A stretch of 64,000 nt of DNA from Amphiscolops sp. MND2022 (GCA_964187785.1 OZ076409.1:9674001-9738000); one strand, 5' to 3'; counted from the first letter of the stretch, positions 1-63,546 are shown. Made by a program: numbers and translations. The notes: generated by a model from the sequence alone, not told the origin.

Positions 1-1112
1 GAGTGAGAAAATAATGTAATATTTGAAAAAGAAAATAAAACATAACAGTATAAAACTGAATGAACTTGGTACTGTCTCACTCAATCAGAATAGGCATCGA
101 ATACTTTCCTTTCAAGTGAAATATTTCAAGTCAAGTGGTTTATTAACTTGGACGGTGATGTTGCTCGGCGCCGCACTGGTACTATATGAAAACGATATGA
201 ACACTACAGTATAGCCCCAGTTTTGCACCGAGACGAAATTCGTCGTGTTACAATTGAAGAATTTCTGATTATTGATATAAATTAACGGATCTTGTTTGCT
301 AATACCCACCCCCACCCCACTCACAGGAAAATTTATCTGTCCCCAGAGTGTTTGCAGAAAATTGCCACCTTCACGGAAATTAATCAATTATTGAATCTAA
401 GCTTTCGAATGTTTCAAACAAAAACTATGAAGTCAGGTTCGTTCCACGCTTGTGTGAACAAGAAAAGGTGATCATTGATTGGAAAATGAAGGTTGTCACG
501 CTGCATGAACAACTTGACTTTCACTTCTAAGATCCCGGTCAACACGTAAAATGGCTCTATCCAAAATGAATTTAAGCAAACTCGTGACCATTACCAAAAC
601 TAAATGGGATACTGTGGCCCTTTATCAGTAAGCTGGGATAATTCCTCTGACAAAACAGTGAAAAAACGACTACGCTGAAAATCCAAAACTTTTAAGTGGG
701 AAAAGGGAAATAAGTTCGCGGGAGCCATTAGCAAACAATATCCAAATTAAACTTGATTTGACATATTTCGACTAGCACTTTCCTGAGGTTTATATAAAAT
801 GCAGTACATATAAGACTCATGATAGTGTCTAGATGATCTACGTTGAGCTAAAAATAGTTCCTTTTTCTTCAATATATCTTGTTATCTTGTTAAAATATCG
901 ATGTTATAAATCAATATAATACAGTACAGTGGCGTCTTTGGTGGCGTCTTTGAACCCTTAAACAACAAAAGACAACACAAAAATGTCTCCCCTTCTAGAT
1001 TATTTCAATCGTATTGCAAACGCAACAATAGTTTTTATATTCATTCCCATCAGGATGCTTCTTTATGCTGCTTTATTTTCTGCTGTATGAATAGGCCCCC
1101 ATTAGAAAAAAC

Positions 1113-1305
1113 TCGAAATCACATCGCGTTGCTATTTCACTTTAATTGACTGAAAATCACGCCGCATTACTATTTCAATGAAATTCACTGGGGAAAACCA
1201 CATCGCGTTGCTATTTCAATGAAGTTACTCGAAAATCACATCGCGTTGCTATTTCACCGAAGTTACTCGAAAATCACATCGCGTTGCTATTTCACCGAAG
1301 TTTGA
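1113..1305. repeat. Tandem array of ~38-bp unit (gaagttactcgaaaatcacatcgcgttgctatttcacc), ~5 copies
   Basis: Unit starts recur at 1221 and 1259 (period 38); the flanking units are degenerate. Confidence 0.9.
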
Positions 1306-1585
1306 AATTAGCTATAGGAAAAGCTGCTCTATAGATCGTTTTGAGAGTCAAAAATAGAAGCAGTAAATACTTGATTATTCGAGGCCAAGTTTCGAACCCA
1401 CAATGATGACAAAGCAATCAAATTATTAAATGTAAAGCGGCAAAAAGAACGAAATAAATAAATAATATTTGACAACAATTAATTGCAAACAACAGTAACA
1501 CAAATAGCAAGGCCTTTTCTCGAAGTTATTTTACTGAAATCAAGAAAAATATTTAGATCTTATTTCCGAAATAGGAAATATTTTA

Positions 1586-1655
1586 CCTGTCCGGGAATCG
1601 CACCCAAGACCTTATGGTTCGAAAGCTAGCGCACTAACTATTTGGCCATAGCGCC
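1586..1655 (-). repeat. tRNA-derived sequence (pseudo-tRNA or SINE head) between the two 38-bp arrays
   Basis: Reverse complement GGCGCTATGGCCAAATAGTTAG...GGGTGCGATTCCCGG has A-box-like and B-box-like motifs, but the acceptor stem does not pair. Confidence 0.5.
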
Positions 1656-1704
1656 TTGAAAATGAACAACTAAAATTTGCTTTTAATCTTATTGCTTGTC
1701 AACA

Positions 1705-2016
1705 AAGTTACTCGAAAATCACATCGCGTTGCTATTTCAATAAGTTACTCGAAAATCACATCGCGTTGCTATTTCACCGAAGGTAGTCGAAAATCACATC
1801 GCGTTGCTATTTCACCGAAGTTACTCGAAAATCACATCGCGTTGCTATTTCACCGAAGTTACTCGAAAATCACACCGCGTTGCTATTTCAGATGAAATTA
1901 CTCAAAATCACACCGCGTTGCTATTTCATAAGAAACTGCTCAAAATCACACTGCGTTGCTATTTCACAAGAAATTACACAAAATCACACCGCGTTGCTAT
2001 TTCAATGAAAGTTTGA
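1705..2016. repeat. Second tandem array of the same 37-38-bp unit, ~8 copies
   Basis: Same aaaatcacatcgcgttgctatttca core; copies degenerate toward the 3' end; ends in agtttgaa like the first array. Confidence 0.92.
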
Positions 2017-4860
2017 ATTGTATTTAGAGAATTGATGATTTTTAGGTACTTTCCTGAAACCGGAGTCTTTAAGTCAATGAACTGATTGTACGGTCTCTAT
2101 ATAGTGCGTCCGGTCTATTAGGAATGGTTTTTCAATTGTCCGGTCCATTAGGAAAGTACCGATTTTTATTTTAAATAGAAAAAATTTTCAATGAAACCAT
2201 ATCAGCATCCGCAGGAGACTTGGGGGCAAACGATGGATAGAAAATTTTCCAAAAATATTTTTAACTTTGTGAAAATCAAGAAAAAGTGCAAATTTGATGA
2301 AAATTGTATCTTTTCTGTTATTCCCCCCTCCCCCAAAGTAAGCTCGGAAGTTTAATTCCCCACCACTATCAGTGATGATTTTCAGTTGCAGTTAGAGCTA
2401 TAAAATACTGCAATTCCATTGGTTGTTAATATTTATTCAATGATAATTTCTCTTGGCCGCTTAACGTGGTGGGGGGATTACCAGTAAAGATCCTGAAATT
2501 TTGTCAAATTTTCGTATTTCTAACTTTTGTAATTTTTCTCGCAGAATTTTCAAACAAACAATTTTGTAAATTAGAAAAAAGTCTAAGAAACTTTTGTAGC
2601 TGACAATTTTAAAGATATTTGAGTTTTAAATTCGCTATTTTGAGCAATGGAGTTGCGATCAGGGATTTGCATTAAAAGAATACATTATTAATGGATATCC
2701 TACATTCAATAAATGCATTACTTTGACTGGCATTTTCATTAAATACTCTAACTTTCAAACAACATTAATTAATACATTTATTGTACAATAAATTGCCGAG
2801 TTTTCATTTTTTTCTCGCCGTTGAGCACTTTTTGCACACTTTCTCGGTTACAGAATGAACCATTCTTGGTCATTCTTGGCGCTTATTGAAATAGTACAGT
2901 GTTTCATTTCAAAAATGATTTTCAACATTTTTCAAAATGGGGACATTTGCTCAGAGCCAGCAGTTGATATAGTTGATATCTGAGACCTATCCATAGATAT
3001 CTACAGATATGTTACACATATCAAACGCCTCCGCCTGCCAAGTGTTTAACTTTGGTGATCTGACAAGCGGAAGCTGTTGCTCTGAGCCATAGTCCCCTAT
3101 TCACAGTAAAGTAATTGGAATATATATACACAGTACATGTATACATTCCGCGCCGCGCCTCATACCACACTGTTACGAATGAAGTGGCGCTTGAACGTGA
3201 TAATTGGCATTTGAAAATGATGAAGGGATCTTTTCTGTTAGCACAAAAATTATTAATTGGTAGGCTTGTATTGCATTGCAACACAAAATTACCAACCCCT
3301 GGTTCCCCCACCAATTTAATACCCCCAGTTAAGAGGTCAAGTGAAATTATCATTGAAATAGTAGTATTAATAATAATATTTGTAATAAAAAAATATTTAT
3401 ACAATAGTGTAAGAAATAAACTGAACCCTTATTTGTAAAAAAAGAATTGGACCAAAACAAAACTAGCTCTGATTTCTGCTATCATCCAAGTTATTTGAAA
3501 ATCAAATAAACAAACATTCTGAAATTTTGTTGCGCACTTGAAATGTAAGTTTGCAAATAATGAAGAAACTTCTTAATTTCATTTTTGATTGATTGTATTT
3601 ACTACTGAATTGGCATAGGGGACATCATTTTGGACAATTTTGTAACATTTGGCACCTAATTTGGAACTTTTATTTATTTGGCAGACACTTCTTCATTTAC
3701 TGAAGCCATTCATTTTTTTTACATTAAGGTAATTGGTATTTTATAGTTTTTGAAAGGGGTTCTCTTCTATTACATTTTATTTACTATCTTAATACGTGGG
3801 ACACAGCTATTTTTCGCAAAGATTGGGAATTATGCTTTCGGTTTTAGATTTTTAACCGATAAAATTATAATCACGAGAATCTGCTAACTAAGGCGATTAT
3901 GCCCATTATCTTAGACATTCAATTTATCCTTGCTATGTTTACATGCAGTCCAAATTATTTCTCACAAATAAGGGTTCAGTTCTTTTCTTACACTATTGTA
4001 ACTCTAACTGCACCTGAATGAAACTCATCGTTGATTCTGGGGAAAATTACAATTTTCGCTCTTACTGTGAGGGGGATTGGCTTTGGTAAACAGAAAAGAT
4101 CCTGATAAAGTGTTTGAAATAAAAAACATGAGTACAAAATCATTCAATACGTGGAAAACACTTACAATTGATAATCATATAATAAATCCAATAAAGAAGT
4201 ACATGAATATACATTTTATGTCCCTCCAAGGCCTAGTGAAAAGTGGGGTCTATGCAAGGTTGTAAAAATAAGTATTTTTAAATAAATATTTTTAAACAGA
4301 TATAATTATTTTTCGACTCAAACAGTTTAGTGAACAAACACGGTCAGCTGTTTATAACGGGGCTGTTTATAATGGCGTAAAAATGTTTCATAGCGGCTCT
4401 CAACTTTTATGTCCCACCAAGGCCTTTTAAAAAAGGGGTCTATGTCCCACTAAGCCGGCTTTGCATAAACAAGTGAAGAAGTTTCCTGGAAATGATATGT
4501 ATTTATAATGATCACCAGAACAAAAAGTCTTATTGGTATTCACTGATTACCGTTTATAGGTTTTTTGTACTGATGGTTGATTGAGTGACATGTTGTAAAA
4601 AAGCAGGTCCATGTCCCACCAAGTGCGTTTTGGTCCCCACGGTATTGTAACTATTGAAGCACGGCCTAACACCCAGTCATGCCAGAATTATCAAGATATT
4701 GATGAATTGACTACATTGAAGACTCATACCAATGAAAGAATCAAACGCATTTAAAGTGATATAAACAAATCACAAACCTAAAAAATTCTACGGGAAAACA
4801 AATTCAGATAAATATATAGATGAAAGTCTTTAATAACGTATCAACTAAAACTTGTTTCAG

Positions 4861-6833
4861 AACGTCAGAAGGGCTCATTCCAATGCAATTCTTGTGGGAA
4901 GATACTAACGAGACATTTCGATTTGCTCCGTCATCGACAAACAAATAAACAATGTAGAGGTCTGCAAGCTAGAACCACATCGTGTATTACAACTCCAGTA
5001 GATGTTCCTGTTGATGTAACCGGAGATGATGTACCTTCTCCCGAACCCGATGCTGCAACAACTTCTCTCGACAGGACACCCAGAGTTAGCCCTGAAAGGC
5101 AACAGTCTGTTCCTCCCCTAGGAGAACTTTTCGGTGAAACAGTTACTTTTGAAGAAGTAATTGCTTCTGGTGAAGTGTTTCCCCCCGAATTAATAACCCC
5201 TCCTAGAGAAAGAGAGACTGCTCGTGAAGTGACTGCTCGTGAAGAGACTGCTCGTGAAGAAGAGACTGCTACTGAAGAAGAGACTGCTCCTGAAGAAGAG
5301 ACTGCTCCTGAAGAAGAGACTGCTCCTGAAGAAGAGACTGCTCCCGGAGGAGAGATTGCTCTTGAAGAAGAGACTGCTCTGAAAGAAAAACAAAAGATAC
5401 CGGAAATTGAACTGCCGTATTTAGATTCCTTCAAATGGGGTTCACACAATCGTTCCAAAGTTGGGTCAAAAAAGTTTTTGGATTTAATTCGAGGGAAAGT
5501 ACCAGTCACCCAAAGTTTCACTGTCAACAACCGCCAGGATTTCAAGAACCGAATGACGAGAAGTACACCATGTCCTGTAGTTTTGAGACAAGCTAGGGGC
5601 AAACTTGCTGGTCTTGTTGTTCCTAGTGCCATACACGGTACCTTCCGTAAAATAACTGAGGGAATCCCTTGCAGCAGGAAAGTAAATGTGTGTTTTTCAG
5701 CACTCCAGGAAGTGGAGAACAATATGACCTTGGCAAGTTTTTTGGGGCATCATGAAGACCCATTCCGCGAGCGAGATCTTCATCCAATGAACATCATCGA
5801 CCTTGACATTGGTCCGCATCAGAGGACAATGAAACACACATTTTCGATTCCAAACTTGATAAAAGAATATTCTCTGGGTCATACTTACACCTCAAGAATG
5901 GATCCCTCAATCCGAGAAGAGTTTGACTTCACTGCTGGCATCAGCAATTACCTCTTGATGACTGAACAGGAAGCACAGACGGATTGGCATCAGGATTTCA
6001 CCGGAACTTCTGTTTTTTACTTTTTGTTGAAGGGAAGGAAAGAATTTTTCATCGTGGAGCCAACCCAGAAAGCCCAACAGCGTTTTGACGAATGGCGAGA
6101 GAGTGAATGGAAAAGGTTTGTTAAAAGGAAAACTCAGTTTTTACTTCAGTTTAGATTAATAATTGTGATCTTTTTCCTTATTGTTAAGTTGTAATTGGTT
6201 ATGTGATTGTTGTCAACAACTGTTAAAAGCTGAAGGTTATGACTGAAGATATTTCCAAAAAAGGGTTTGCTTTTCACGAGTTACAAGATACCTTCAAGGG
6301 GCTGAAACTTCTTAGAAAATTTCCGATGTTTAAAGTAGAAGTTAGTTCTCTCAACTTTGATTAATGTTGTTTTCAGCTCCACTTTCTTCGGTTTCCATCG
6401 AGATGTCACATGCTATCATATTGTGGTAGAAGAAGGAGACGCTATCTTCTTACCAAGCCAGTGGATTCACTTTGTTCACACCCCTGTTGATAGCATTGCT
6501 TATGCGTGTAACTTCATTATGGAAACCCACCTCCACCAGAGTGCCCTAGCCTTCAAGAAGGAGCTAGACGCAGGTTTGGCAAGACGTTTCTTGTTCCCAA
6601 ACTTCCCAGGTTTGATAGTGATGCAGCTCTACATGGAATGGGCTAATAAAAACCGCGTGAGTCCTATCACGAAAGCCGCCATGCGTGAGATGCTGCAGAT
6701 CATAAAAGCTGATGAGCGACCAACTGGTAAAGAATTTCCGCTGGAAAATCCCTGGGCAGAGTTCTTGTATCGCTATGCAGCAACTGTCAGCGACTTGCAT
6801 TGGGATGTAATTGAGGAGTGGCTACAACGTTGA
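4861..6833 (+). CDS. Zinc finger + JmjC histone demethylase (KDM2/KDM7-like); exons 4861-6115 and 6377-6833; first coding exon not located
   Basis: After acceptor tttcag(4860): FQCNSCGKILTRHFDLLRHRQTNKQC (C2H-type finger). JmjC motifs TDWHQDFTGTSVFYFLLKGRK and FLPSQWIHFVHTPVDSIAYACNF give an intact HxD...H triad. Phase-2 GT-AG intron 6116-6376 joins the exons in frame. Confidence 0.88.
5214..5380 (+). repeat. Coding minisatellite (15/18-bp units) encoding acidic EETA(P/R)E repeats
   Basis: gaagagactgctcctgaa repeated within the JmjC exon. Confidence 0.9.
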
Positions 6834-7023
6834 GGAGAAACAACAGAGTCCAGAAAGTGCAGCTTGAGGAAGTCTTCATTTTCAGTTTCAAAACTTGATT
6901 TTCGGCTCTTTATTGACTGATGAACATGCAAACAGTTTGCTTTCTTTATTTAGTGTCATGTGTTTTTTACTTACTGAGCACTTTTGCTTACTTTTTTTAC
7001 TTACGTAGTAAATACTATACCAG

Positions 7024-7422
7024 CAGAGGTGTGATCGCTAACAATTTTATCGCAAATCGCTAACATCGGTAATGGCTTGATTTCATCTCTATCGCTACAA
7101 CAAAATGGGTGGTTCGCTAACGCTATCACTATTTTAAAAACCTGATTTTCAGAAAGATCATATAAAAATTTCAGAATGTACTTTAAAATTAATAAATTTT
7201 GAAGTTTTGGGCAAATTGTACTTCGCCTACAAAGCCGGGCTCATCGAATAACTGTTCGAAAGGAAAAAGCCAAAATGATGTGTCAAGTTATTCGCAATAA
7301 TTTTTTGCATTAGTTAATTTTGAATTTCTAGTTGAAAACATGTTCGCTAACGCTTTAATTTGTCGCTAACTATCGCTATCGCTAATTCATGCTGAATTGT
7401 CGCTATCGCTGTCATACCTCTG
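7024..7422. mobile_element. hAT-like MITE between the JmjC and SET genes
   Basis: TIRs cagaggtgtga / tcatacctctg; 8-bp flanks tataccag (7016-7023) and tatacaag (7423-7430); many internal tcgcta motifs. Confidence 0.8.
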
Positions 7423-7789
7423 TATACAAGGTATAGAAAAAAATCGAAAGTTTCTTATGATGAATGTACAAATGTTGTGGATTTTGAGAATTCAAGAGAA
7501 CAATTGAGGCAAAAAATTCAGCCTCAACTCTGAATTTGCTCAATGATTCTTCCGACTTGTAGGCTACGTGTAACTTTGTTTTTGCTTAAATCAATTGTTA
7601 CTACCTTACAGAATCTGGAAGTATCAGTTGTACTAATGGTCTTTCGTAATTAAAGCATTTCTTCGGAGTGGTTTTTTAATTCAATGTTTTGTAAGCTTAC
7701 AAATGTACATCGAGTTCACTAGTGAGATGGGGTTAGAAACGATTTCTTGTCTGTCAGGACTTCTTTAAACGTAACTTTCTAGGACTTGA

Positions 7790-10700
7790 ATGTCAACAAG
7801 AAGTGCTGCCCGGAAAGCAGAGCCCTGGAGCTCTTTTCTTTACTCAGACCCAGAAGGCTTCCAAGTGAAAACTGTACAGTTTGCAAACGGGGCCACGGGG
7901 CGAGGGCTTTTCGCTAACAGAAGTTTTGACGACAAAAAATTTTTGCTCACTTACTGGGGACCGAGAAGTACAACAAAAACGACCAACTTCGACTATGTGA
8001 TGGAACTGCAAGAAGGGAAACAAGCGGTATTCATTGACACTTCTGACGAAAAGAATTCAGGAATGGCTCGATTCATCAACGACAAGGACAGAGCAGTGGC
8101 TGCTAACTGTCGGATGAAGAAGGTCACTGATGACCAAGGTAGAAACCATTGCATCTTCCTGGCAACTCGCCCGATTCAGTCTGGTTAGTTTGTTTTTTTT
8201 TACAAGACAGAAGGCCATTTAAGGCACTGAGTGTGAGTCCCACCAAGTTCCAGTGAAAAAGGTATCAGTGTCCCAGCAAGTGTTGATCAAAGCGTAACGA
8301 TACATTGAACGGTTTTGCAGTAATACACACTTGGAAGTACCAGGCTATTATTTTACACTGCCTTAACGGTTTCGTAGCAAATTCCAGGCATTTTGCACTA
8401 TGTTTCGTATGAGGTACCACCAAGGCTGAGTAAAAAACGGAATCTATGTCCCACCAATTCTGGTATCGTAAACGGCCTTATTTTTGCACGGCCTTAACGG
8501 GACATCTGAAAATTGAAAAACACTGCCTATTGCCGAAGTTTCCACCGAAGTCATTTTTGTGAGACAATTAAAAGAAACAATTCTCAATTGATCATTCTTG
8601 TTTATCCGTTCATATTCACAGGTGAGGAGTTGCGCTATGATTATGGTTTTCCTCATGCAGAATGGAGACGAAATCCTCAAGCTCCGGGAACCAAAAGTAA
8701 TATAGATAATATAGAAGCCGCTGATTCCAAAAACAAAATATCTCGTAATGTGGACGAGCCCTTCATAACAGTGACAAGGAAGAAGAAACTGGAAACTCTC
8801 TTCAAACAATCTGGACCTGAAAAAGAAAAACCCGGTGATTCCGAAAAAAGAATTTCATCAACAACGCAAAGAAAAGGAAAAGAATCTGAAGTTCCAGTGA
8901 AAGAGGTTTCCAATTTGTATCCCAATCTTAGTGCGAAGAACCTCACAATTCCACTTCAGCCTGTGCCATTGCAATCATGCAACGAATCTAACAACATTGA
9001 GATACAAAACGCAGCGGACACAGTAGAAAAACCTCCTAACACATTACACAACAATGCGGGGGACACGGAACAGAGGATCTCAACAAAGTCATCGCAAAAC
9101 CAATCTAGCAAAGTTGAGAAAAGCAAAACTACTGACACAGAAGAGAAGACTCTTAACCCGTTACGCAAAGAAGGGGACACGGAACTGAGGATCTCAACAA
9201 AATCATCGCAAAACCAATCTAGCAAAGTTGAGAAAAACAAAACTACTGACACAGAAGAGAAGGCTCTTAACCCGTTACGCAAAGAAGGGGACACGGAACC
9301 GAGGATCTCAACAAAATCATCGCAAAACCAATCTAGCAAAGTTGAGAAAAACAAAACTACTGACACAGAAGAGAGACGGGGGGCCACGGAACCGAGGATC
9401 TCAACAAAATCATCGCAAAACCAGTCTAGCAAAGTTGAGAAAAACAAAACTACTGACACAGAAGAGAAAGCTCCTAACCCGTTACGCAAAGACGGGGACA
9501 CGGAACCGAGGATCTCAACAAAATCATCGCAAAACCAATCTAGCAAAGTTGAGAAAAACAAAACTACTGACACAGAAGAGAAAGCTCCTAACCCGTTACG
9601 CAAAGACGGGGACACGGAACCGAGGATCTCAACAAAATCATCGCAAAACCAATCTAGCAAAGTTGAGAAAAACAAACCTACTGACACAGAAGAGAAGGCT
9701 CCTAACCCGTTACGCAAAGACGGGGACACGGAACCGAGGATCTCAACAAAATCATCGCAAAACCAATCTAGCAAAGTTGAGAAAAACAAAACTACTGACA
9801 CAGAAGAGAAGGCTCCTAACCCGTTACGCAAAGACGGGGACACGGAACCGAGGATCTCAACAAAATCATCGCAAAACCAATCTAGCAAAGTTGAGAAAAA
9901 CAAAACTACTGACACAGAAGAGAAAGCTCCTAACCCGTTACGCAAAGACGGGGACACGGAACCGAGGATCTCAACAAAATCATCGCAAAACCAATCTAGC
10001 AAAGTTGAGAAAAACAAAACTACTGACACAGAAGAGAAGGCTCCTAACCCGTTACGCAAAGACGGGGACACGGAACCGAGGATCTCAACAAAATCATCGC
10101 AAAACAAATCTAGCAAAAATGAGAAAAACAAAACTACTGACACAGAAGAGAAGGCTCCTAACCCGTTACGCAAAGACGGGGACACGGAACCGAGGATCTC
10201 AACAAAATCATCGCAAAACCAATCTAGCAATGTTGAGAAAAACAAAACTACTGACACAGAAGCGAAAGCTTCTAAACAACCACGGAAACCGAAGAATGTA
10301 ACTAGAAGCATTGAAGCATCGTATGCCAAAATGACTGAACTAGAAGGAAGAAAACCAAAAACACCTTTTGGAGCCAAAAACGAATGTATAATACCTCAGA
10401 AGGTAAGCACAATTTCATTAATTACCCGTTTAAGATTTGAAATTACTGACTTTTTGAAAAATCTTTTTTTGGTTGCGTTTGCACCTCAAAGTGAAAACAA
10501 TTTGATGGCTTTCATGCACCTCATTCATTGAAGTGCCACAGGATTTTAAAATCATGCTGGTAAAAGTTTTTTTTTTAATTGTTAAGTTTAATCATGTGAA
10601 AAGAATTTTGCATGTAAAAACAAACGCATTGTGGACGAATGTAGATTATAATGCTTCATCATCTGGAAATAACCTCAATACAATTTTAGTCCAAAAGGAA

Positions 10701-13700
10701 GCCACTGTGGTTTTAGAGCGAAATATTTTTTTCGGAACTGTGTTGTTCCCGAAAGAATAAGATTCTCCCTTTTTAAGCAGTTGGAGCTCTCTGAGGGAAC
10801 ATCAAGGGCTTTGAGAATTCTCAACAAAGGACGCGAATACTTAACGCCGAAGCCTGAGGAAGATTTGGATTCTGACTCAGCCGAAGAACACAGCAACATA
10901 CCTGAACAATCAAGCGAGAGTTCCAGCGACGATTCGTCGTCGGAAACATCTGAATCTTCAGGTGAAAGTTACATTGTTGATGAGGATGAAGGTAGCGAGG
11001 AACTGTCTTCAGAAGAAGAAACAGAAACTGCATCAACAGCTGAAAGAGCGCCAAGTACGCCCAATAAAGTTTCATCAAATCAGACAGTGGTATTGGGAGA
11101 AGGCATTTCTCAGATCAGTGAGAGTAGTTATCAGACCGCACTAGCTTCAACGTCGTCTACAAGACCAGATGATGTTGCAAACACTATGGACGGCTATGAT
11201 AACATTGAAGACGACATGCAACAATATGTCAACGCTAATTGTTCCGGAAAATGGAGATTCAACTCAAAGTATCTCAGGAAGATCCAGATTGTTGTCTCTG
11301 AAGGTAAATACAAAAAGAAGAAATGTTGTCCTTACTGTCCTTTCGAAGATATCAAAGATGCGACAATGGTCGCCAAATTACATCGCCATTTGCAATCATT
11401 CCATCAAAGAGAGCTCCGCGTCAGTAACCTTAGGCGAATAAATCTAGAAATAGAAGAATTAGAAGGAAGTAAGGAAATCGCGACAACTGAACGCGATTTG
11501 AGGAAACTTCATAAAGAGAAAGAGCAAACATACCGCTTGATCACATATGAAGGCCAGTACAAATATAACATCGCGGTTTTCAAAAAATGCATAGATACGA
11601 ACAGATTCACTGACAAACTGATCGTAGTCAGGGACCCAACGGAAACGGAGAATCCAACAGCTGATAACTATGCTCCTTGTCCTGATTGTCTTGGCTTCTT
11701 CATGAGAAAAACCATGTACCGGCACAAACTAGACTGCCCGGCAGTTACCAAGTCTAGCCATAAGGAAGGAAAAAACAAAAACATCAAAGCTGCCATCTTT
11801 GCGTTGATGCTTGAAATCAAAGCAAATCATAACACACCATTCCAGGAATTCCTTTATAACAATTTAAGAAACGATCCAGTTGCAGAACTAATACGAAATG
11901 ACCCCCTTATAAAGTATGTTGGGGAATATTATTTCAACAAGCGAAAATCAGACGAAGGCTACAATCAGATCAGGGACAGAATGCGAGTAATGGCCAAACT
12001 TGTTCTCCAACTGGAATGCTCATATTTGATTGAACTAATCAGACCAGACATGTGGTCAAAAGTGAAAGAAGCGGTGTCAAAAAATTTTGCAAAATCCTAC
12101 CAAGTGAAAATGGGATCGATTCTGAAAACAGCTGCTGCATTTCTGCAAAATCAAGCTTTCGTGTGGGAGAAGAAGGAGATATCTCAACAAGCTAAACAGT
12201 TTCAGAAAATTATTGACACTGAATGGGCTCAAATATCCGCACCTGCTAAATACGAGTAAGTTGGAACCATTCAAAAACTATTGAGGCAAATATTTACAAA
12301 AAGTATCGAATTTTGGCAAAAATTTGAAAAAAAATTGTAGTTTCGGAGTGTGAGAAACGTAGTGGAACTTTGTCTAAAATAGTTACTTAGCCAATTTCAG
12401 TCGTTTTGCTCTAGTCCTTATAGCGGGCCCACCTTTTATGTCTCACTTAGTGTGCGTCCCACCAAGGCCAAGTAAAAGAGCGGGTTTATGTCCCACTAAG
12501 TCTGGTTTGCTCAACAATTCAAGTAAAAGAAGCCACAATGTAAAAAGTTGCTCCACACGTTTTATTTAGGCCCCCTAAAACTAGCTGATAAACGTTTTCA
12601 GCCTTTTCTTTCCCAAATCTAATCACCTTGTGTTTTTCTAGGTTGGTCAAGAAGCAAAATGAGAGCATACATCTGGTTATTCCCACTACGGACATCATTA
12701 AATTCCGGCAAAGCATTGGAAAAAAAGTGCGAGAACTCCTCGAACTGACTAAGTATAACTATGCCGAACTCAAACTAACTGTGATAGCTGATCTTGTTAG
12801 TTTCAACAAGAAGCGTGATCGTGAAGTTTCTGGAATCAAAAGAAGAGATATGATACTACAACGGAGTCTTGCCAGTGAACGAGCAAAGACAGCGGATAAC
12901 GAGCTCGTGAAGCTTACAAAACTAGAGGAAAAGTTCGCAGAAGTCTACACACTCCTCCGACTTCCTGGTAAGGGAGGAAAAGTTGTCCCTGTGCTGGTGC
13001 CACCGGACACACTCAAACTTATTGATATCATGATAAATGATGACAACTTGAAAAATGAAACGTACTTCTTCCAAACAGAAGGTGGAAAACTGCATTACCG
13101 GAGCGCTGAGGCCCTGAACAAGTTCGCTAAAGACTTTGAGCTGGAGAACAAACCTTTGTTCAGGTCAACGAAGCTTCGAAAGTATATGGCGACAGCAGCA
13201 CAGTTTTAGAACTTACCACAGCACCAGAGGACTTGGGTTGCTGATTTTCTGGGTCATGACTTAAGGGTTCACGACAAGTATTACAGGATGCACACTGATG
13301 CCTTAAATCTAGCAAAAGTTACAAAATTGTTGTATATGGTCGACAGCGGTAAACTCGAGGAAGCCTATTCGAAAGACCTTGACACAATTCAACCAACACT
13401 GGAGGATGGCGAGTTGGACGACTCGGTTAGTTTTGTAGTTTTTGAAAATATCAGTCCGGATTAAATAAAAAAATAGGTTTTGATATTTGTACTATTGCAA
13501 TAAAGAAAATCCCCTACGGGTCCGGGAATAATCTATCGAAAAAAACAAAAACCCACTGAAACATTACATGCTGGAATTCAATTTCAGTTATAATTATCAT
13601 AAGTATAATCATAACATGCAATCCAACGCTAGTTTGTGAAGATGAAGATATTTGATTGGGAATTGGTTAAAAAGAAACGCAATGTGATCTAAAGTCGATT

Positions 13701-14717
13701 GCTTCAGAACTTGGTCGTCCAAAGTCAATGAACTCAATATTATTTGCTCCATCTGGCAAATCTGGAAAACATTGATTTTCAAGAGATCAGTAACTTCGTG
13801 TCCAGTTTTAACATAGCACGCGGAAAAGAAATTCAAACCTATTCAGGAACTGTCATCAACTGGAAAGAATAGATTTTTTCTTACCTATTTTTTTATAAAG
13901 CCAACCATTGATTCTTCTGATTACTTCAGATAACAGTACAATCAATTTCATTTAATTCGTAACCGGATAATTCGGATCTTCGTTTATTTTCGTATAAAGT
14001 TTCTACTGAAGCAATACAAACCTCTTCTTCACATTGCGTTTCTTTTGGATCATACTCCCAACGAAACAATACACATCTTAATTGTGCATAATACACATGC
14101 ATCTAGGCAATGCAGGCCTATTCTCTATCACGTCGCGTTTCTTTTCAAAACTCTCTTTTCAAAACATCAAAGAGTATTGTAACTTTTAAACTATAAAACT
14201 TTTGAATTTAAAATTATAAAATAGTAACTTAGCCAAAACAAAGTCGTTTAGTTAGAAACAGGTTGACTTCATTTGAGTAATTGGAATTTGTTTTTTCAAG
14301 GATAACGAAACCGAAGTCCAAGACGATACCAATCATGCGAGATCCGGTGACGGCGCAGAAAATTCACTGAGAAGGTCCAATGCCTCAACCTCGGGAAGCA
14401 AAAACAGTCTCTCACTTGGAACAGGCGATGGTGACACGGGTGACATTTCGGATGAATTTAATACAACAATCAAAAGGAATCGAAAGAAAACTACTGGTGG
14501 TAAGAAAAAGCCTAAGCCTGGTGGTACTACACGACGAACATGGCCGCTGGATCAAGAAAAAAGGCTGAGGAAACAATTCCGAGAAGAGATGAAGCAAGGA
14601 CGACTGCCTGGCCGAGCAGTTTGTTTGGAGGCAATGAAAAAATATCCCCATGCTTCAAAGTGGCAGGATATCAAAGATAAAATACGGAACATGACCATCA
14701 GTGACGCAAGAAAATGA
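7790..14717 (+). pseudogene. SET domain - repeat - zinc motifs - tyrosine recombinase - Myb-like fusion gene; exons 7790-8183, 8622-10402, 10781-12255, 12642-13425, 14301-14717; single in-frame TAG at 13207-13209
   Basis: All four GT-AG introns are phase-consistent. SET motifs GRGLFA, MARFIND and spliced IQSG|EELRYDYG. YR motifs FNKKRDREV, GKGGKVVPVL, STKLRK, FLGHDLRVHDKYYR. C-terminal RRTWP...LPGRAVC...WQDIKDKIRN. Confidence 0.88.
9059..10268 (+). repeat. Coding tandem repeat, 114 bp / 38 aa, 11 units
   Basis: GDTEPRISTKSSQNQSSKVEKNKTTDTEEKAPNPLRKD repeated; unit 3 has an in-frame 21-bp deletion. Confidence 0.95.
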
Positions 14718-15218
14718 TCAGTTATCAGTGACAGGATAACAATAATTGAAGGATAAAGTCATATGAACTTTCACTCGAGTATGAAACTTACCTTTTCAAA
14801 CAAATCCAGGTTTTACGATACTTGACTTGAGTTGTAACAACGTTGTTTGGGCTGAATAAAAGATTTGCAATGACTTGGATTTTTAATTTACCAGTCAACT
14901 TGTTACTAGCTAACTGTGTACTGTCAAGAGTAAAGTATATGAAAATTATTCAGAAGGTGTACAAAAAATATGGGGTTACCGAGAAAATTTTATCTGTCAC
15001 TTTGACTAAAACCAATGATTATCAGTACCTTGAGTCCATTTGAAAATTGCCCAAAGACTGGTCACCAGGGATTGAAAAATATTAAATGCGTGAACAATTA
15101 ATAATTAAAGTCAATATAATGACTGCAATAAATTTCCAGCCAATTTCGTTGTGTCTTTGCTCTCTCCAATGACAGAGTTTCATTCGTAAAGAATAACATT
15201 CGGAAAACAGAATTATGT

Positions 15219-16165
15219 TTTGAGGTCCCACCAATGCATGTCAATAAGTATTCTTGATAGCTGAAAATCGCTGAAAAGATTTTGTGTTAAGGTCCCACCA
15301 ATGCATGTCAATAAGTATTCTTGATAGCTGAAAATCGCTGAAAAGATTTTGTGTTAAGGTCCCACCAATGCATGTCAATAAGTATTCTTGATAGCTGAAA
15401 ATCGCTGAAAAGATTTTGTGTTAAGGTCCCACCAATGCATGTCAAAAAGTATTCTTGATAGCTGAAAATCGCCAAAAAGATTTTGTGTTTAAGTCCCACC
15501 AATGCATGTCAATAAGTTTTCTTGATAGCTGAAAATCGCTGAAAATATTTTGTGTTAAGGTCCCACCAATGCATGTCAATAAGTATTCTTGATAGCTGAA
15601 AATCGCTGAAAAGATTTTGTGTTAAGGTCCCACCAATGCATGTCAATAAGTATTCTTGATAGCTGAAAATCGGTGAAAAGATTTTGTGTTAAGGTCCCAC
15701 CAATGCATGTCAAAAAGTATTCTTGATAGCTGAAAATCGCCAAAAAGATTTTGTGTTTAAGTCCCACCAATGCATGTCAATAAGTTTTCTTGATAGCTGA
15801 AAATCGCTGAAAAGATTTTGTGTTAAGGTCCCACCAATGCATGTCAATAAGTATTCTTGATAGCTGAAAATCGCTGAAAAGATTTTGTGTTAAGGTCCCA
15901 CCAATGCATGTCAATAAGTATTCTTGATAGCTGAAAATCGCTGAAAAGATTTTGTGTTAAGGTCCCACCAATGCATGTCAATAAGTATTCTTGATAGCTG
16001 AAAATCGCTGAAAATATTTTGTGTTAAGGTCCCACCAATGCATGTCAATAAGTATTCTTGATAGCTGAAAATCGCCAAAAAGATTTTGTGTTAAGGTCCT
16101 ACCAATGCATGTCAATAAGTATTATTAATAGCCAAGTTAAAGATTTTGTGTATGTCCCACCAAGG
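15219..16165. repeat. Tandem array of 67-bp unit, ~14 copies, each containing GTCCCACCAA
   Basis: ttaaggtcccaccaatgcatgtcaataagtattcttgatagctgaaaatcgctgaaaagattttgtg recurs with period 67. Confidence 0.95.
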
Positions 16166-16231
16166 GAAAAGTGTGTACGTCCCACCTTATGCCCGTTTCG
16201 TGTACGGACCCACCAAGTGCTACTTCGTACA

Positions 16232-16350
16232 CATGTGTGTGTGTGTATTTATATATATATGTATAATTTTTTTATAGATAATTATTGTATGTATACATAT
16301 ATATATATATATATAATTATTTTATATATATATATATTATATTATTAATA
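16232..16350. repeat. (TG)n/(TA)n microsatellite tract
   Basis: Directly visible dinucleotide runs. Confidence 0.9.
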
Positions 16351-32400: not shown

Positions 32401-35400
32401 CTAGAGTTGTTTCGATACTAGCAGCAAAAAAGAATCTGTACTTTTTGATATTGTTCAAGCAAAAAGCAAAATTTACCGCTCGAACAAGCTAAAATAGCAT
32501 AGGAAAGCCCTTTTTAGCGCAAGTGGGTGGATAAGAAACATGATCCGGAATTGCAAAGCGCCGTAAATTTGTATGTATTCATTTCTCAAAAGAGCCTCAA
32601 GAGCCAAAATTGTTTCAATTTTATGGAAATTAAATAGGGCTTTTCGTTGCGAAATCAAGAAAAAATAAAAGTTTTAAACTTTTAGCTTTTTGGCAACTTT
32701 GGAAATTTGTGAAATATTTCATGCATTATCTGGCAAGCCACTGGCCATAGCCAAACGAGACGCCCGCTAAGCACCGGGATATTTTCCGCCTTCTTCGCAT
32801 TCACCAACTGAGCCATAGCTATTTTGGGAGGGACGAATAGGATTTAAAGTATAAGATTTAAAATTTAGTGATATTATTCCCGTCCTGAAACTTTAGATCT
32901 TATTCCCTTTAGATCTTATTCCCATTTTTACTTTAGATATTAATCCCCAATCTACTAGTGAGATGTCCGATGAGATGTCCGATTGCTATTTTTATTTTCC
33001 GCCCACATATAATGGGGGAGGAAAATCATGATCTGTGTTGCGTTTTTTCCCAAATTCTGCAAATCTCCTCCGAGGCTCCACTACTTGACTATTTTGTATA
33101 GCTACTTGACTATTTTAGTTAGTAGTAACTAAAATAGTCAATTAACGAAAACAGCTTACTAAGCTTACTAAAATAGTCAAGTAGCTATACAAAATAGTCA
33201 AGTAGTGGAGCCTCGGAGGAGATTTGCAGAATTTGGGAAAAAAACGCAACACAGATCATGATTTTCCTCCCCCATTATATGTGGCCGGAAAATAAAAATA
33301 GCAATCGGACATCTCATGTTTGGTCTATTTTTGAAAATACCCTCCTTGAGATTTAACAACGCAAAGTGATCACAAATTGCGGATACTTCAAGTTTCATCC
33401 TGTAAAAACATTGTTTTGTCGGATTTACAACTGTTTTTAGCTGATAAAGTTTCAAAACAATCATTTTCAGAAAATATGTAGCAGCGAAATGGTGAAGAAC
33501 AAAGTCAAAGCTAAGAAACAGAAAACGAAAAGTTTTACTTCAGACCAGTACTTTCCGAGATTACTTCCAGTTCGAAAAAATAATCACAACTTTTCAAATT
33601 TCAATAAAAAATCTCATCACATTTCAAAACAAAAGATACCGTTGTAATTCTGGTCAAAAAATGAGACATTTTGCACTTGAGATTTTTTGTAACACGCGAA
33701 TCACAAGGAAACTAGTTTTTTGGTTTTCAGCTTTTTGGTACCATAGTTTATATTGCAAAAATTCTTTTCCCTTGAAACAACAGGCCAAAAACGCTGGTAA
33801 TAAACTACGAACATTCTGCGTGTTCTTGTCACTAAATAACTTTTGAAATTGATCAATGTCAGTTGAAATATTTACATATTCGAAGTATCGATTATCACAT
33901 GGTCATATACTGTTTCAGCTGTCGTTTTTCGGAAACCAGCTGTATGGATCAAATCTTTCGAGCGAAGCGTTGCTAAAGGAAGTTTCTCCAGAAACCCCGA
34001 ACAAATTTGGATCATCGTTACAATGGAGACGGCCCTAAATTCTAACAAGGAACACCAGATCCCCAGAAACGAAATTTTAAAGGACGCATTTAATTGGTCA
34101 ATGACGTATTCAACAAAATCAACCATTTTTAGACCGTGGTTTTTTGTGAAAGAAATCAAGGAAGAGAAACCGTTTTGGGACGTGAAGCAATACATAAAAG
34201 GCATGAACAAATCAAAAGACTTTTGTTGGATTTTGAGCAACTGTTTCAGCGATTGGGCTAAAAGACGTGAATTGGGAAATGCATTGATTCCCCTTCTTCC
34301 CAGTAAATTGCACATCTGGGGAAAAGCATACGAGGTGAGGATGGGTTCTTTTCTGAACAAATGGGTTCAATGATTTGCTCGCTGTTTTTCTATGTATCAT
34401 TTTATTGTGTCCGTAACTATAGTATCTTTTGTTCCGGCTACTGCCGTTTGGCTGCTGAGTGGCTGCAAGAATGGTTTGGCTGCTGCTGTCAATTTATTTA
34501 TGGCCGCGTGCCCTTTGTGCAGTAGCATTATAATTGTTGCTCTGAGGTTTTTCGGGTTCAACTAATTCTCTCCAGCGGTTTGTCAGATTTTGTGTTTCTT
34601 GCGAAGGGTCTTCTCTTTCGATCTGTTCTACCCGTCGAATATCCATTATGGTTTCTTGATCAGTTTGCATGACGTTCAGTTTATTTTGATCGACTCTCTT
34701 TGAACGTGCTAGCAATGAACTGCGTTTGTTTGTTTTGCACTCTTTTGTCTTCGGTCCGTGCATAATGCTTGGCTCTGATTGGTTGATTTTTTGTTCACAC
34801 CGCTCGTTTTGGCGCTTCTAGTTTCTTTTGACTGACGACGTTGCTGTAATCGTTGATGAACTCAAACAAGGGTATTACGCAATTAATTACGTACTCTTTG
34901 TCGTAATTTTCGATCTGTTCTGGCTCTGATATTAGATTTCGGCTCGAGTAATCAGCGGTATATGTTTTCCTGCAATGAGTTTGATATTAATATCGAAAAG
35001 AGTCAAGCGTTTTAACCATCTTGTTATTTTTGCACTATATGTTCGGTTCGATCAGTTTCTGTTAATGAGTGGTTCCAACGCTTTGTGCTCTGTTATTAGT
35101 TTGTCTGGCTTTCCGTAAATGTATTATCAAAAGTGTTCCAGTCCCCAGGCTACAGCTAGTAGTTCCAGTTCGTTTATTTCAATTTACTTTTCTGTATCCG
35201 ATAAAATTTGCTTGCAACTCCGACTGGTTTTAAGTTTCCGTCTTTTTATTTTTGCCACATTGTTGCCCCAGTCCTTTTTTACTGGCGTCTGTGGTAATTT
35301 TGTTTTCGTTCTGTGCATTGTAATGAGCAAGGCAAGGTATTTTCGTAATACTTTCTTTTAGCTTGTTGAATGCATTCGCGTGTTCATCCGTCCATATCCA

Positions 35401-38400
35401 CTCGTTTTGTTTCTTCAGTAATTTCTTCAAAATGTGTGTGTTTGCTGACACGTTTTCATTGTATTTTGGTAGATACTTTATTGCTCCCAGAAAAGATTTT
35501 AGCTCTTCCTCGTTTTTTGGTATGTTGATGTTGGTGATTGCTTCTGATTTATCTTTTAATGGTCTGGTTCTTTGTTGATCTATTTTGTGTTCACCCAATC
35601 ATTTTCTTTTTTTAAAAAGCTCGCACTTCGCGGGGTTTGGTCTCAATCACGCTTGTTCCAGTTTTGTCATTGTTTCCCGTACTTCTGCTTCGTGTTTTTC
35701 CATTTTTCCATATTTCCTTAAATGACTCTTAATATGTCGTTCAGCCATGCCGGCTGTTTGTGTTCCAGTGTCGTGCCTATCCGTTCTTGGAACATTGTTA
35801 GATTATCCGCAAGTCCGTAGAAGCCTTTCAGGAAACGGTAATATCCTGTGAAGTCTCCTCCCGTGACTGTGAATATGCATAGATTCTTTGTACTTATGTC
35901 CAGTTTGATTTGTCCGTACGTGTGGTCGAAGTCAAGTTTTGTTGCTAAAATTTTTCTGTATATTCCTTGTGATATTTTTCTTGAACTTCGTGATATCAAT
36001 TCCCCCATGTTTGGCATTTGTGCTTTTCTTTTTTTTGTCACTTCGTTTAGTTTCCTAGAATCGAGGGCAAATTTTACCGATTTGTCTTTTTTCACCGTTA
36101 TCACTGCAGGGCTCACAAAGCAATTTTTCTGTAATTTCTGTTGCATTTTCTACATACCCGTGTTTTTTTAGTCGTTACAGTTCTTGTGCCACTTGCTCTT
36201 GAAGGTGTATTGGGATTGCTTGCCCTTTTTGTTGTTATATTTGTGCCCCGGCTTTCAGACTTATTTTATTCAAGAGATTTTTTGTCTCTTCGTTGTTGTA
36301 GAAAAAATTTTTGAAATCGTATCGGAATTCAGTTATTCTTCTTTCCGTATTGTCCAGATTCATGTTGTGGATTTGAATTGCATCGTTATTTGAACTCAAA
36401 TTTATTTTCAGTCGTTGCATCCAATCCAATCCCATTAATGGTGCCATTTGTGCTTCTGTGACTAGCAGCGGTAATTCGAATATTTCTTTGTTTGTTTTCA
36501 CCGTTGCTTTCGTCTGTCCCGTGAAATTAGTCTTTTGATTCTTCATGTCTTCATAAGTGGTCTTGAGTCGTTCCTATGGAGTTATTTTGTTGAATAGGCA
36601 TTCCGGAATAAGTGTTACTGGTGAGCTGCTGTCGATGATGATTTTGATTTGTACGTTGTTAACCAATAGTGTGGCGTTGTGAAAGCCTTTCTTTTGTGTC
36701 GTGTTGTTTTTTTTATGGATTCTATGGTGTTCCCAATAGTCTCCTTCTGCTGATGAAGTTGTTCTGTCCACGTATTGTACACGTATTGTTGATTTGCACA
36801 TCTTTTCGTAGTGGCCTCTTGTTTTACAATTTCTGCACTCTGCCATTTTAGCTGGGCATACGTGTTGTCTCGACCAACTTGGTGCCCCGCACAGTCCACA
36901 TCGGTCTCTCTGTTCTTGTTTTTGGTATTCCAGTCTTTTCTTTGTACTGTTCGTATCGGATTTGTCCGTCCATTTTCGTTTGTGTGGTCTTTCTTGTACG
37001 TGTTTGATTTCTTTTCCGTCATTTGAATTGTTTGAATAGTTTTTTTGGTCGTACATTTGTTCGTGTCTCTAGGCAGTAATTGTTTCAATAGTCATGTCAT
37101 TTTTCCGAATCTTTTTCTTTAATTCGTAACCGACTGGTGATCTACCGATTACAGATAGGAACTTTGATGCTATTAATTCTGCCGGTGTTACATTTTCGAA
37201 TTCGCAGTTCTTTTCCAACTGTGGGATCCTTGTCCAGACATCTTCGGCCGCTTCGAGTTTATCCCGCGTTTCTCCAAAGCAATCCGCCCTGCTATGGAAT
37301 TTGTTTCGTGCCGCCATGAAGTGTAACCGGAACAGCTAATATAGTTGGTGTAAGTCCCCTTCATTTCGGTCGTTATCTCTAACGTTTCTTGTCGTTTCCG
37401 GTACCGCTAAATCGCCCAGTGCCCAGATAAATAGATCTTTGATCCGGTGTTCCAGGTCGTCACTGTAGTTTTGTAATCTTTCGCGGTCTGTTTTGTTGAT
37501 ATCGATATTTTGAGTCATAGTGATATACTGTGTGAATCGTCTCCACCATAACTCCGCCTCTTGTATTCCGCGTTTTTCAAATGTTGGTAGTGTATTTTTT
37601 GGAGGGTTTTCTCGGTTTTTGAATTCGCTCTTTCGGAGATTTCTCCGCTTGAAGAGCTTGCGCTCTCCGATGATTCCTGGTTTTCTATCTTAATTACTGT
37701 GCCATGTTGTATCTCACGAATAAAGTATGAAAATAGTTTAATACTGAAGCTTCTATTCTGTACTGTGAGTGATAATAAAAGTTCAGTGAAATGGTTAGCA
37801 CGTATGTTAGTTGGTGATACTATTGACTGGTACTAAAATGTCAGTACTACAATTAATAGTACATATGCAATTAAGTACAAAATATGACGTCATATCACAA
37901 CCAATAATTTTTTGAAAAATGAGTGAAACTATCAGAACAGAAAGCCTTAAAACCAACCCAGAAACCTTCATTTTTGAAGTTTCATTCACGATATACGACA
38001 GTTTTAAAGTTACAGGAACAAACTCTGTTCACACTAATTTCCCATGAAGTCACGCGTTCTTGATTAGGAAATTGACAGCTCATTTTTTGAGTCACAGAAA
38101 ACGGTTAACTTGAACATATTTTATAATTACAGTCAAAATGGTAAAAAAAAGGTTCAAACGAAAAACTATTGCATTAGAACTCAGCTTAATTTCCTATTAT
38201 TGAAAATATATCACTTTTAATCAGGCCAATTTCAGTTTTATTTTAATTTTCATGAAAATTTCGATAGTGGTGGCAGAAACGTGCCAAAGGATGTACAAAA
38301 AGCATTCAAAAGCTACCCAGTTTTTCGATCTTTGCGAATCTGTGCAGATCTGCAGGGTTCTGCAAAGATCGTTGCACTGAATCTTGAAGAGCCATACAGA

Positions 38401-40989: not shown

Positions 40990-41183
40990 TGTGAGAGAGT
41001 GCACTCTCGAACACTCAAACTAAAAAAGAAACAGGTTGTGTAACACTTTATTAAAGTTGTTTACCAACAAAAAGAGTGCTCACAAGAAAAGTGAGAGCGG
41101 CCATTTACCATATGGTCTACATACAATACAGTATTAACAGCTCTATTGTTTTGATTCTTCTTCGAGATAGCATAGCTATAACA
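40990..41183 (+). repeat. 5' LTR
   Basis: TG...CA ends; one visible mismatch to the 3' LTR. Confidence 0.96.
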
Positions 41184-62171: not shown

Positions 62172-62329
62172 AGGTTCATACCAGATGAAAAGATTAGGAA
62201 GAAAGCGAATCAGAGAATAAGAAAGAAGCTCCGACAACTGAAAGTGTCTCAGTAGGTTAGTGATCTGTATTTTTTCTTGGTCTTCGAAAACCTTAGTTGG
62301 TTGGGAAACCTTGAGATTTTGAAGTGATT

Positions 62330-63540: not shown

Positions 63541-63546
63541 AAGAAG

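Follow-up and report, generated by a model that had tools for sequence, protein, structure and literature searches.

Transposons are usually viewed as targets of host chromatin silencing, and several are associated with modules that act on chromatin or modify DNA: chromodomain integrases, DNMT-carrying retrotransposons, TET/JBP genes with KDZ transposons, VANC of the VANDAL elements and SETMAR. We know of none among these that joins a histone demethylase gene with a methyltransferase-recombinase fusion in one element. Where a eukaryotic element relies on a tyrosine recombinase (YR), it may be a retrotransposon, as are the DIRS-like elements (DIRS1 has inverted terminal repeats), or one of the fungal Starships, whose captain is a DUF3435-type recombinase located at the 5' end of the element. 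Cryptons, in the part of their description available to us (PMC3212892), have no terminal inverted repeats or long direct repeats and have direct repeats of 4-6 bp at their ends; a term search of the same part finds no SET domain or methyltransferase. The present analysis concerns a stretch of 64,000 nucleotides from Amphiscolops sp. MND2022 (GCA_964187785.1 OZ076409.1:9674001-9738000, here G000:C1:9674001-9738000), all of which is called the window; positions are counted from its first base and negative positions lie before it. The window is AT-rich animal DNA crowded with mobile elements. We think it probable that positions 3790-16350 make up the right-hand quarter, in which the genes lie, of a DNA transposon of giant size; it carries two genes, one with a JmjC domain and one with a SET domain fused to a YR (SET-YR), for whose products we infer recombinase and chromatin roles.

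The family is multi-copy and dispersed, with near-identical copies that have copy-specific right flanks. The genome searched amounts to 1.07 Gb in 1929 contigs, and the copy figures are the best scored matches among the candidates, which makes the counts and the linkage lower bounds. On this basis the YR exon has at least 135 copies (best 135 of 667 candidates), the JmjC exon at least 146 (best 146 of 1295) and the SET exon at least 150 (best 150 of 555, with 89-100% identity), and protein identity over the three lists is 72-100%. In either orientation, copies occur on each of the 13 largest contigs (C1-C13) and on numerous small ones, and the order and spacing of JmjC, SET and YR are constant among the copies listed. 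Both SET and JmjC lie upstream on the same strand for at least 97 of the 135 YR matches, the remaining listed matches having SET only (19), JmjC only (9) or neither (10); the median distances are 4.8 kb from SET to YR and 6.9 kb from JmjC to YR. The same linkage is seen when starting from the other exons, since at least 118 of the 150 SET matches have a JmjC match 1.5-4.5 kb upstream and at least 119 of the 146 JmjC matches have a SET match 1.5-4.5 kb downstream on the same strand. With both partners upstream of so many YR matches, the JmjC gene therefore belongs to the mobile element. A preliminary description of this DNA had expected further copies with the same gene order and different flanks, which is what we see, and had also allowed for a single-copy JmjC gene of the host, which these figures rule out. 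Leaving aside the window's own exon, the YR matches ranked highest are 26 copies at 99% identity, none with a stop, and the 25 best JmjC matches are likewise free of stops; such near-identical, stop-free copies of both genes mean that the family has been active recently.

Repeated units of this kind could also be immobile, as would be the case for a cluster of host genes spread by segmental duplication, or for an artefact of the assembly in which repeats have been collapsed and expanded. Some small contigs do end exactly at the end of the unit (C226 at 1 and 44000, C1411 at 70000; also C1087 and C56), round contig sizes of 58000, 70000 and 78000 occur among these, and the window copy has a scaffold gap at its left end. 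The assembly thus seems to break at the repeat, and this may affect the copy counts and some of the junctions. However, an immobile repeat would have to be reconciled with the spread over C1-C13 and many small contigs in both orientations, with the unrelated right flanks of the 8 comparison copies that have a flank, and with a related subfamily that has defined inverted termini, and we give this explanation next to no weight.

The right end of the mobile unit lies at 16246. All nine copies compared align with the window up to 16240-16250, and past this point the DNA is unrelated in all 8 copies with a flank, the ninth contig stopping there. The compared copies end alike in ...GTGCTACTTCGTACACA(T/A)GTG, after which the TG count is variable. 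The terminal 24-mer has 265 matches in the genome at up to 2 mismatches and a reversed control has 0, and in a search with the terminal 147 bp the best 40 of 345 candidates are all right ends. The microsatellite that the preliminary description had taken as the end of the element lies outside it: similarity stops at about 16240-16250, and the TA run at 16246-16342 is host flank.

The left end is much farther away than the start at 3790 that had been proposed, as all nine other copies continue across this position at 98.5-99.6% identity (over about 1750-5800, upstream of the JmjC gene). These same nine copies, which are those compared at the right end, are 99.6-99.8% identical over -4083 to 1916; other copies align at 98.5-99.8% over -28000 to 5800 and over 13392 to about 16246. 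A copy on C7 is 99.4% identical back to at least -28000; relative to it, the window copy has gained private insertions of about 4 kb in the stretch from -9135 to -4986. The unit reaches -32029 (G000:C1:9641971), where the window copy meets a gap of 200 N (-32229 to -32030). All 31 scored matches of the leftmost 10-kb query start at the first base after this gap, and the first 300 bases after it have at least 40 matches (40 scored) with 99-100% identity. In 34 of these 40 cases a listed YR exon follows on the same strand, 38-59 kb farther downstream and most commonly at about 40.6 kb, and three further ones have a JmjC match at the expected distance. Measured from end to end, copies are 43,946 (C7), 44,168 (C9), 43,789 (C3), 43,979 and 44,207 (both C8) bases long, and one on contig C226 is 44,000 long (positions 1 and 44000). 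The window copy measures 48,276, its left limit being the assembly gap and not a terminus that can be read. As judged by these alignments the mobile unit is about 44 kb long, with its left end about 32 kb before the start of the window, so the coordinates proposed earlier covered only part of it and the unit begins outside the window. To the left of the gap there is an unrelated 4.7-kb repeat and then 616 bases that match no other place in the genome. The 4.7-kb repeat (L058:423-5154, about -37.6 to -32.8 kb) has many copies at 85-89% identity, and no match to it adjoins any other copy of the element.

A related subfamily of about 19 kb has inverted ends. When matched without mismatch, the terminal 24-mer forms seven inverted pairs with spacings of 19.0-25.6 kb, each of which encloses a JmjC match of about 81% identity and most of which also enclose SET or YR matches. 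In the copy at C5:34087725-34106929 the initial 700 or so bases correspond to window 16236-14882 in reverse complement, with the 67-bp tandem array included. The right arm is the reverse complement of the left end in this copy and is therefore a terminal inverted repeat (TIR) there. Upstream of the JmjC gene, the likeness between the interior of the 19-kb copy and the 44-kb form is limited to patches. Holding the same genes between TIRs of about 0.7 kb made of 67-bp repeats, the 19-kb subfamily is the older one and represents the ancestral form. A tandem repeat that translates as ...HRVAIS...ALLFH... is present at two places of the window's element, window 1100-2010 and L055:3515-3865 (about -24.4 kb), and is found in the interior of the 19-kb subfamily as well.

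Both the private motif and the tandem array that the preliminary description had pointed out hold up when counted. The array has 13.7 copies of a 67-bp unit at 15212-16132, and each unit has GTCCCACCAA. The motif GTCCCACYWR occurs 21 times in the window against 0.38 expected, always on the + strand and always within 4411-16163, and none of 100 shuffles reached this number. Thirteen of the occurrences are in the 67-bp units, one is at 16154 near the terminus, and the remaining seven are upstream of the JmjC exon and inside two of the SET-YR introns. The + strand of the whole 48.3-kb unit has GTCCCACC 32 times and the - strand has it 6 times, and it is absent from 47.7 kb of the right flank. Its occurrence throughout the unit ties the mostly non-coding left arm to the core, and its distribution suggests a putative protein-binding site.

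Every long open frame in 4800-14750 is on the + strand, where two co-oriented genes, both with introns in their splice models, adjoin the right end of the element. The stop codon of the JmjC gene and about 950 bases separate it from the SET-YR gene. Both gene models are predicted from GT-AG sites and matching frames only. The introns in both models speak for a DNA element and not a retroelement, and no reverse transcriptase was found among 8 frames of the element core in a Pfam scan.

The JmjC gene is seen as two open frames (4824-6194 and 6339-6833) with weak Pfam matches to JmjC/Cupin_8. Its penultimate exon encodes a C2H2-like zinc finger, a tandem repeat of 18 bp (8 copies, 5213-5383) and the N-terminal half of the JmjC domain, which includes the iron ligands of the H-x-D motif; its last exon encodes the second half, with the iron ligand in WIH, and a helical C-terminal region. 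The first of these exons has no ATG, which means that the model lacks one or more 5' exons. Compared with solved structures, the first half matches KDM7A (E 8.4e-12); its HQD falls on the HID of that enzyme, and the cofactor pocket retains its Thr, Tyr and Lys. The second half matches PHF8 (E 1.3e-10) with WIH aligned; the structures matched by both frames are KDM7A, PHF8, KDM2A and PHF2. In a language-model atlas the JmjC domain adjoins a KDM2-type cluster (0.96). No PHD, CXXC or F-box module was detected in the JmjC frames by Pfam, which besides Cupin/JmjC gave only a weak C2H2 match at the N-terminus of the protein (E 0.016, below the cut-off). The predicted protein is thus of the PHF8/KDM7/KDM2 type, with the residues for iron and 2-oxoglutarate in place. 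The zinc-finger-JmjC gene of the preliminary description is therefore recovered, its finger by this weak match.

The gene is not confined to this genome. A word-based search beyond it gave 16 relatives of the JmjC protein, all without names, and those at 42-50% identity fall in clusters of 1-18 members. Four such relatives were inspected and all have a C2H2 finger, then a tandem peptide repeat and then the JmjC part; H-x-D is kept in all four and WIH in both of the full-length ones. The clusters to which proteins of this layout belong have 3-18 members. We read this combination of finger, repeat and JmjC as a conserved multi-copy gene and not as a fresh capture. The JmjC gene could nevertheless be a passenger, that is, a host KDM2/7-like gene captured by the ancestor of the family and without a role in its life cycle. 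Such an origin would suit the left 32 kb, which has two RING-finger exons and no other recognisable domain and so indicates that the family carries extra, possibly picked-up DNA. It would also suit the absence of a JmjC domain from all 22 long SET-YR relatives scanned, as well as the identity between subfamilies, which is about 81% for JmjC against 92-96% for the other two parts (92-93% for SET and 94-96% for YR); this higher divergence could indicate weaker constraint. What speaks against a passenger is that the JmjC frame is open over 441-476 residues in many copies of both subfamilies and that the layout recurs with its catalytic motifs at the identities given above, which together describe a long-lived, constrained multi-copy gene and not a decaying capture. 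The gene is also present in 7 of 7 TIR-bounded copies. We consider it unlikely that the JmjC gene is only a passenger.

The second gene is predicted to have five exons encoding about 1617 residues, with the domain order KMT5A/SETD8-like SET, a linker of 38-residue repeats, zinc-finger-like motifs, YR catalytic domain and basic C-terminal domain. The frame at 7790-8188 matches the Pfam SET domain with E 3.2e-7 (31.2 bits, cut-off 22.4), as had been claimed before, and the repeat of exon 2 is encoded by a 114-bp tandem array of 10.8 copies at 9059-10266. The frames at 10673-14717 matched no Pfam family. Exon 3 aligns over about 330 residues with relatives of 844-865 residues (E 4e-19 and 7e-16), and the C-terminal block of exon 5 is also present in the relatives P0072 and P0073. 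Exons 3-5 as a whole align with SET-less relatives of 600-865 residues, some of which are uncharacterized fish proteins. In the 22 long relatives scanned, an N-terminal SET is present in 13 and a SET at any position in 16, one relative has a chromodomain in place of the SET and one has an ATF7IP-binding domain. As read from these predicted proteins, SET fusion is a trait of the recombinase family. The likeness to SETD8/KMT5A proposed earlier holds at the level of the family, where the SET domain of the relative P0087 matches KMT5A/SETD8 with E 1e-23. In the window copy, an in-frame TAG at 13207-13209 interrupts the YR exon; otherwise all of the exon frames are open. Because of this stop the window copy is predicted to be a dead passenger for recombination. 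The earlier claim of a SET-YR fusion gene thus stands for its two parts, the SET domain and the YR fold, and less well for the fusion, which is a splice model with a TAG in the copy at hand.

The YR domain was recognised by its structure. Nothing meaningful was obtained by sequence, either from Pfam (with the single exon and with 11 relatives) or from profiles of solved structures (with 11 and with 75 sequences). A first model built from an 11-sequence alignment had a predicted local distance difference test (pLDDT) score of 48 and was discarded; the AlphaFold model from a 75-sequence alignment has a pLDDT of 86. The top Foldseek matches of the latter are XerH, XerA, type IB topoisomerases, lambda Int and Cre (E 4.8e-4, probability 1.00). 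A second structural aligner matches it to XerH with Z 12.4 and a root-mean-square deviation of 3.4 over 171 residues, and the best 50 rows of this comparison are all recombinases, integrases or type IB topoisomerases. In a language-model atlas the YR exon is near unnamed eukaryotic clusters and then Phage_integrase (0.91) and NDC10_II (0.90). Six residues (Arg58, Lys110, Arg179, His205, His210 and Tyr214) are each conserved at 90% or more in the 75 sequences. We regard the tyrosine-recombinase fold of the modelled domain as established, which bears out the earlier claim of such a fold in a frame downstream of and co-oriented with the JmjC gene, and tyrosine-recombinase chemistry as likely. The family to which this domain belongs is large: at a cut-off of E <= 1e-3 it has 5197 representative proteins, of which 1134 remain at E <= 1e-30. 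The named relatives of the YR exon come from fishes, and YR relatives at roughly 70% are present in other assemblies. The only DUF3504 match is in P0091, in a separate ZMYM-like part of a 3514-residue model.

A recombinase gene in the element does not by itself mean that its product moves the element, and mobilisation in trans by another enzyme, for example a DDE transposase, would leave SET-YR as cargo or as a resolvase-like accessory. Inverted arms of about 0.7 kb with subterminal arrays are indeed unusual for YR DNA transposons, going by the part of PMC3212892 available to us, and the YR has a Thr at the position equated with the usual His. On the other hand, the scanned frames of the 48-kb unit show no DDE-type domain or any other that resembles a transposase, the SET-YR gene adjoins the terminus in every copy examined, and the terminal sequence is private to the family, as its 265 matches against 0 for the control attest. 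The SET-YR family also has thousands of representatives in which the Arg, Lys, Arg, His and Tyr are conserved. Movement in trans seems to us improbable, more so than a passenger role of the JmjC gene.

Returning to a transposon that moves by its own SET-YR recombinase and carries a JmjC gene, several observations besides the divergence of JmjC between the subfamilies weigh against it. Some concern the SET domain. Exon 1 of the window alone is weak when compared with solved SET domains (E 0.24, KMT2A). SET methyltransferases usually have N-H-(S/C) at the cofactor-binding motif, and here the motif is N-D (RFINDK in the window, RLVNDE in P0087); with N-D where N-H is expected, the activity of the SET domain is therefore uncertain. 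Others concern the recombinase, which has no match to DUF3504 or Phage_integrase at E <= 1 in 11 family members and none to a solved structure by sequence. Thr176, conserved at 90% or more, is at the place equated with the first His of the tetrad, and R-H-R-Y has been assigned by motif order and not by superposition. The remaining ones concern the ends. Self-comparison finds no inverted copy of the right end within -38000 to 0, and the zero-mismatch 24-mer matches on C1-C9 adjoin the left end of no 44-kb copy. Finally, long inverted arms with subterminal arrays are more typical of cut-and-paste transposons than of Cryptons.

The left arm is nearly without long open frames. There are 52 frames of at least 75 residues in the left 37 kb, of which 43 were covered by a Pfam scan, and among these 43 no reverse transcriptase, DDE transposase or viral protein was found. 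A duplicated segment encodes two related RING fingers, both on the minus strand and located near -30.9 kb and -11.2 kb (L058:7106-7342(-) and L053:6842-7108(-); E about 1.5e-5, below the Pfam cut-off); these exons may be captured pieces of a host gene or a third gene of the element. One further frame has two trivial sub-threshold Pfam matches. The private insertion of the window copy (G000:C1:9664865-9669014, -9135 to -4986; L043) is about 4 kb long and bordered by long trinucleotide runs, and its frames of 174, 104 and 145 residues have no Pfam match. An endogenous virus was considered and rejected, as the 48 kb are almost without long frames and no viral-type domains were found among those scanned.

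A possible life cycle can be drawn from these features. The SET-YR protein would be the recombinase of the element, and the repeated GTCCCACCAA, present in the terminal arrays and over the whole unit, would be a site for this recombinase or for the zinc finger of the JmjC protein. The element would excise to a circle; where a copy has TIRs, joining its two ends would create a lox-like palindrome (...GTACACATGT / ACATGTGTAC...) as the core, centred on ACATGT. Integration would then take place by crossover in TG-rich targets, which would agree with the varying number of TG repeats at the right junction. The SET and JmjC domains could act on nucleosomes, either those of the element or those of its target, and so keep the element transcribed or accessible to recombination. 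KMT5A and PHF8 (KDM7B) are an antagonistic writer and eraser pair for monomethylated lysine 20 of histone H4 (H4K20me1), according to the part of PMC5542855 available to us. The pairing of SET and JmjC in the element would correspond to such a KMT5A writer and PHF8-type eraser, and the two enzymes may have the anti-silencing function that the preliminary description had proposed.

In the literature searched, with Repbase and subscription journals outside its scope, no transposon with a JmjC gene or with a SET-recombinase fusion is described, nor is any giant tyrosine-recombinase transposon in animals. In the part of a review of giant transposons available to us (PMC6431247), tyrosine recombinases are mentioned only for bacterial elements. 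A broader reading, which we hold tentatively and with rather more doubt than conviction, is that the element belongs to an undescribed superfamily of eukaryotic tyrosine-recombinase DNA transposons to which a KMT5A-like SET fusion is native, and that this lineage has added a PHF8-type JmjC and thus encodes writer and eraser of a single histone mark, with which it sets the chromatin of its copies or integration sites. If this is true, the writer and the eraser may have let a mostly non-coding element of 44 kb exceed a hundred near-identical germ-line copies. The element would be a natural system in which to ask whether mobile DNA rewrites its own chromatin. The SET-YR family is large and its recombinase part has no Pfam family. 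A definition of this family would close a gap in how transposons are classified and would explain many of the 'uncharacterized' SET-domain proteins in animal gene sets.

Table 1. Features of the element and its right flank, in window coordinates; exons are those of the predicted splice models
Feature	Position	Strand	Basis
Part of the giant element within the window	1..16246	+	alignment to other copies, 98.5-99.8% identity
GTCCCAC(C/T)AA motif, cluster of three upstream of the JmjC exon	4411..4622	+	motif count
JmjC gene, penultimate exon	4861..6115	+	acceptor ...tttcag at 4860, donor GT at 6116
JmjC gene, last exon, ends in TGA	6377..6833	+	Pfam JmjC E 1.4e-4; splice frame checked
SET-YR exon 1, ATG and most of the SET domain	7790..8183	+	Pfam SET
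SET-YR exon 2, end of SET (GEELRYDYG) and 38-residue peptide repeat	8622..10402	+	frames, tandem repeat
SET-YR exon 3, acidic linker, two Cys/His zinc-finger-like motifs, N-terminal recombinase core	10778..12255	+	alignment of relatives
SET-YR exon 4, tyrosine-recombinase catalytic domain	12642..13425	+	AlphaFold model, structural matches
SET-YR exon 5, basic C-terminal domain, conserved Trp residues, stop codon	14301..14717	+	open frame
Right terminal arm with 67-bp array	14882..16246	+	reverse complement of the left end of the 19-kb copy (L057:423-1114)
Right terminus, ...CCACCAAGTGCTACTTCGTACACA then TG repeats, number variable	16210..16246	+	24-mer matches, flank divergence
TA microsatellite, host flank of the window insertion	16247..16342	.	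absent from 8 other copies with sequence past the end

The rest of the window has other elements. At 41171-46086 (+) there is a sequence like a long-terminal-repeat retrotransposon, with a gag-like frame of 435 residues that has CCHC knuckles and an uninterrupted pol-like frame of 1231 residues, in which motifs of protease, reverse transcriptase, RNase H and integrase were judged by eye. Frames broken by stops at 35230-37091 (-) resemble another retrotransposon (gag knuckle, reverse transcriptase, RNase H), and frames at 61554-63999 (+) that run off the end of the window resemble a non-LTR retrotransposon and at 63526 show a start like that of an endonuclease. A frame of 183 residues at 39980-40531 (+) looks by eye like the C-terminal part of a glycosyl(fucosyl)transferase and is a candidate host exon.

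Compared with the known systems, the element shares with Cryptons that it is a DNA element with a tyrosine recombinase as its sole recombination enzyme, with no reverse transcriptase found and a circular intermediate presumed. It differs from them in size (19-48 kb), in a recombinase fused to SET and in a second gene, which is a JmjC gene. The two further differences, inverted arms of about 0.7 kb in a related subfamily and no sequence match to DUF3504 or Phage_integrase, lead us to doubt the 'Crypton-type' label that the preliminary description had used, again by comparison with the available part of PMC3212892. By the partial account of Starships available to us, the likeness to them is that of a giant element, tens of kb in size, that bears a tyrosine recombinase close to one of its ends and carries a long stretch of other DNA; here, though, there is no DUF3435-type Pfam match, the host is an animal, the recombinase gene points to the nearer end, and the carried DNA is mostly without long open frames. 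A 44-kb tyrosine-recombinase element in an animal would extend the idea of giant cargo-carrying transposons beyond these fungal elements. From the DIRS-like elements it differs in having no reverse transcriptase or RNase H in the frames scanned and in a splice model with introns.

The products can be compared in the same way with host enzymes. PHF8, KDM7 and KDM2 have reader or targeting modules of the PHD, CXXC and F-box kinds. PHF8, KDM7A and KDM2A are the best solved relatives of both JmjC exons, and the ligand positions for Fe(II) and 2-oxoglutarate are conserved, but the protein here has a single C2H2-like finger and an acidic peptide repeat, and its gene is multi-copy and borne by a transposon. 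KMT5A/SETD8 (PR-Set7) is the enzyme nearest to the SET domains of the SET-YR family, by way of P0087, and these domains differ from it in the fusion to a recombinase, in the N-D motif and in the weak match of the window exon. The element can be set beside chromodomain integrases, VANC of VANDAL elements, SETMAR and the like, as it too is a mobile element that has, or is fused to, a module predicted to act on chromatin.

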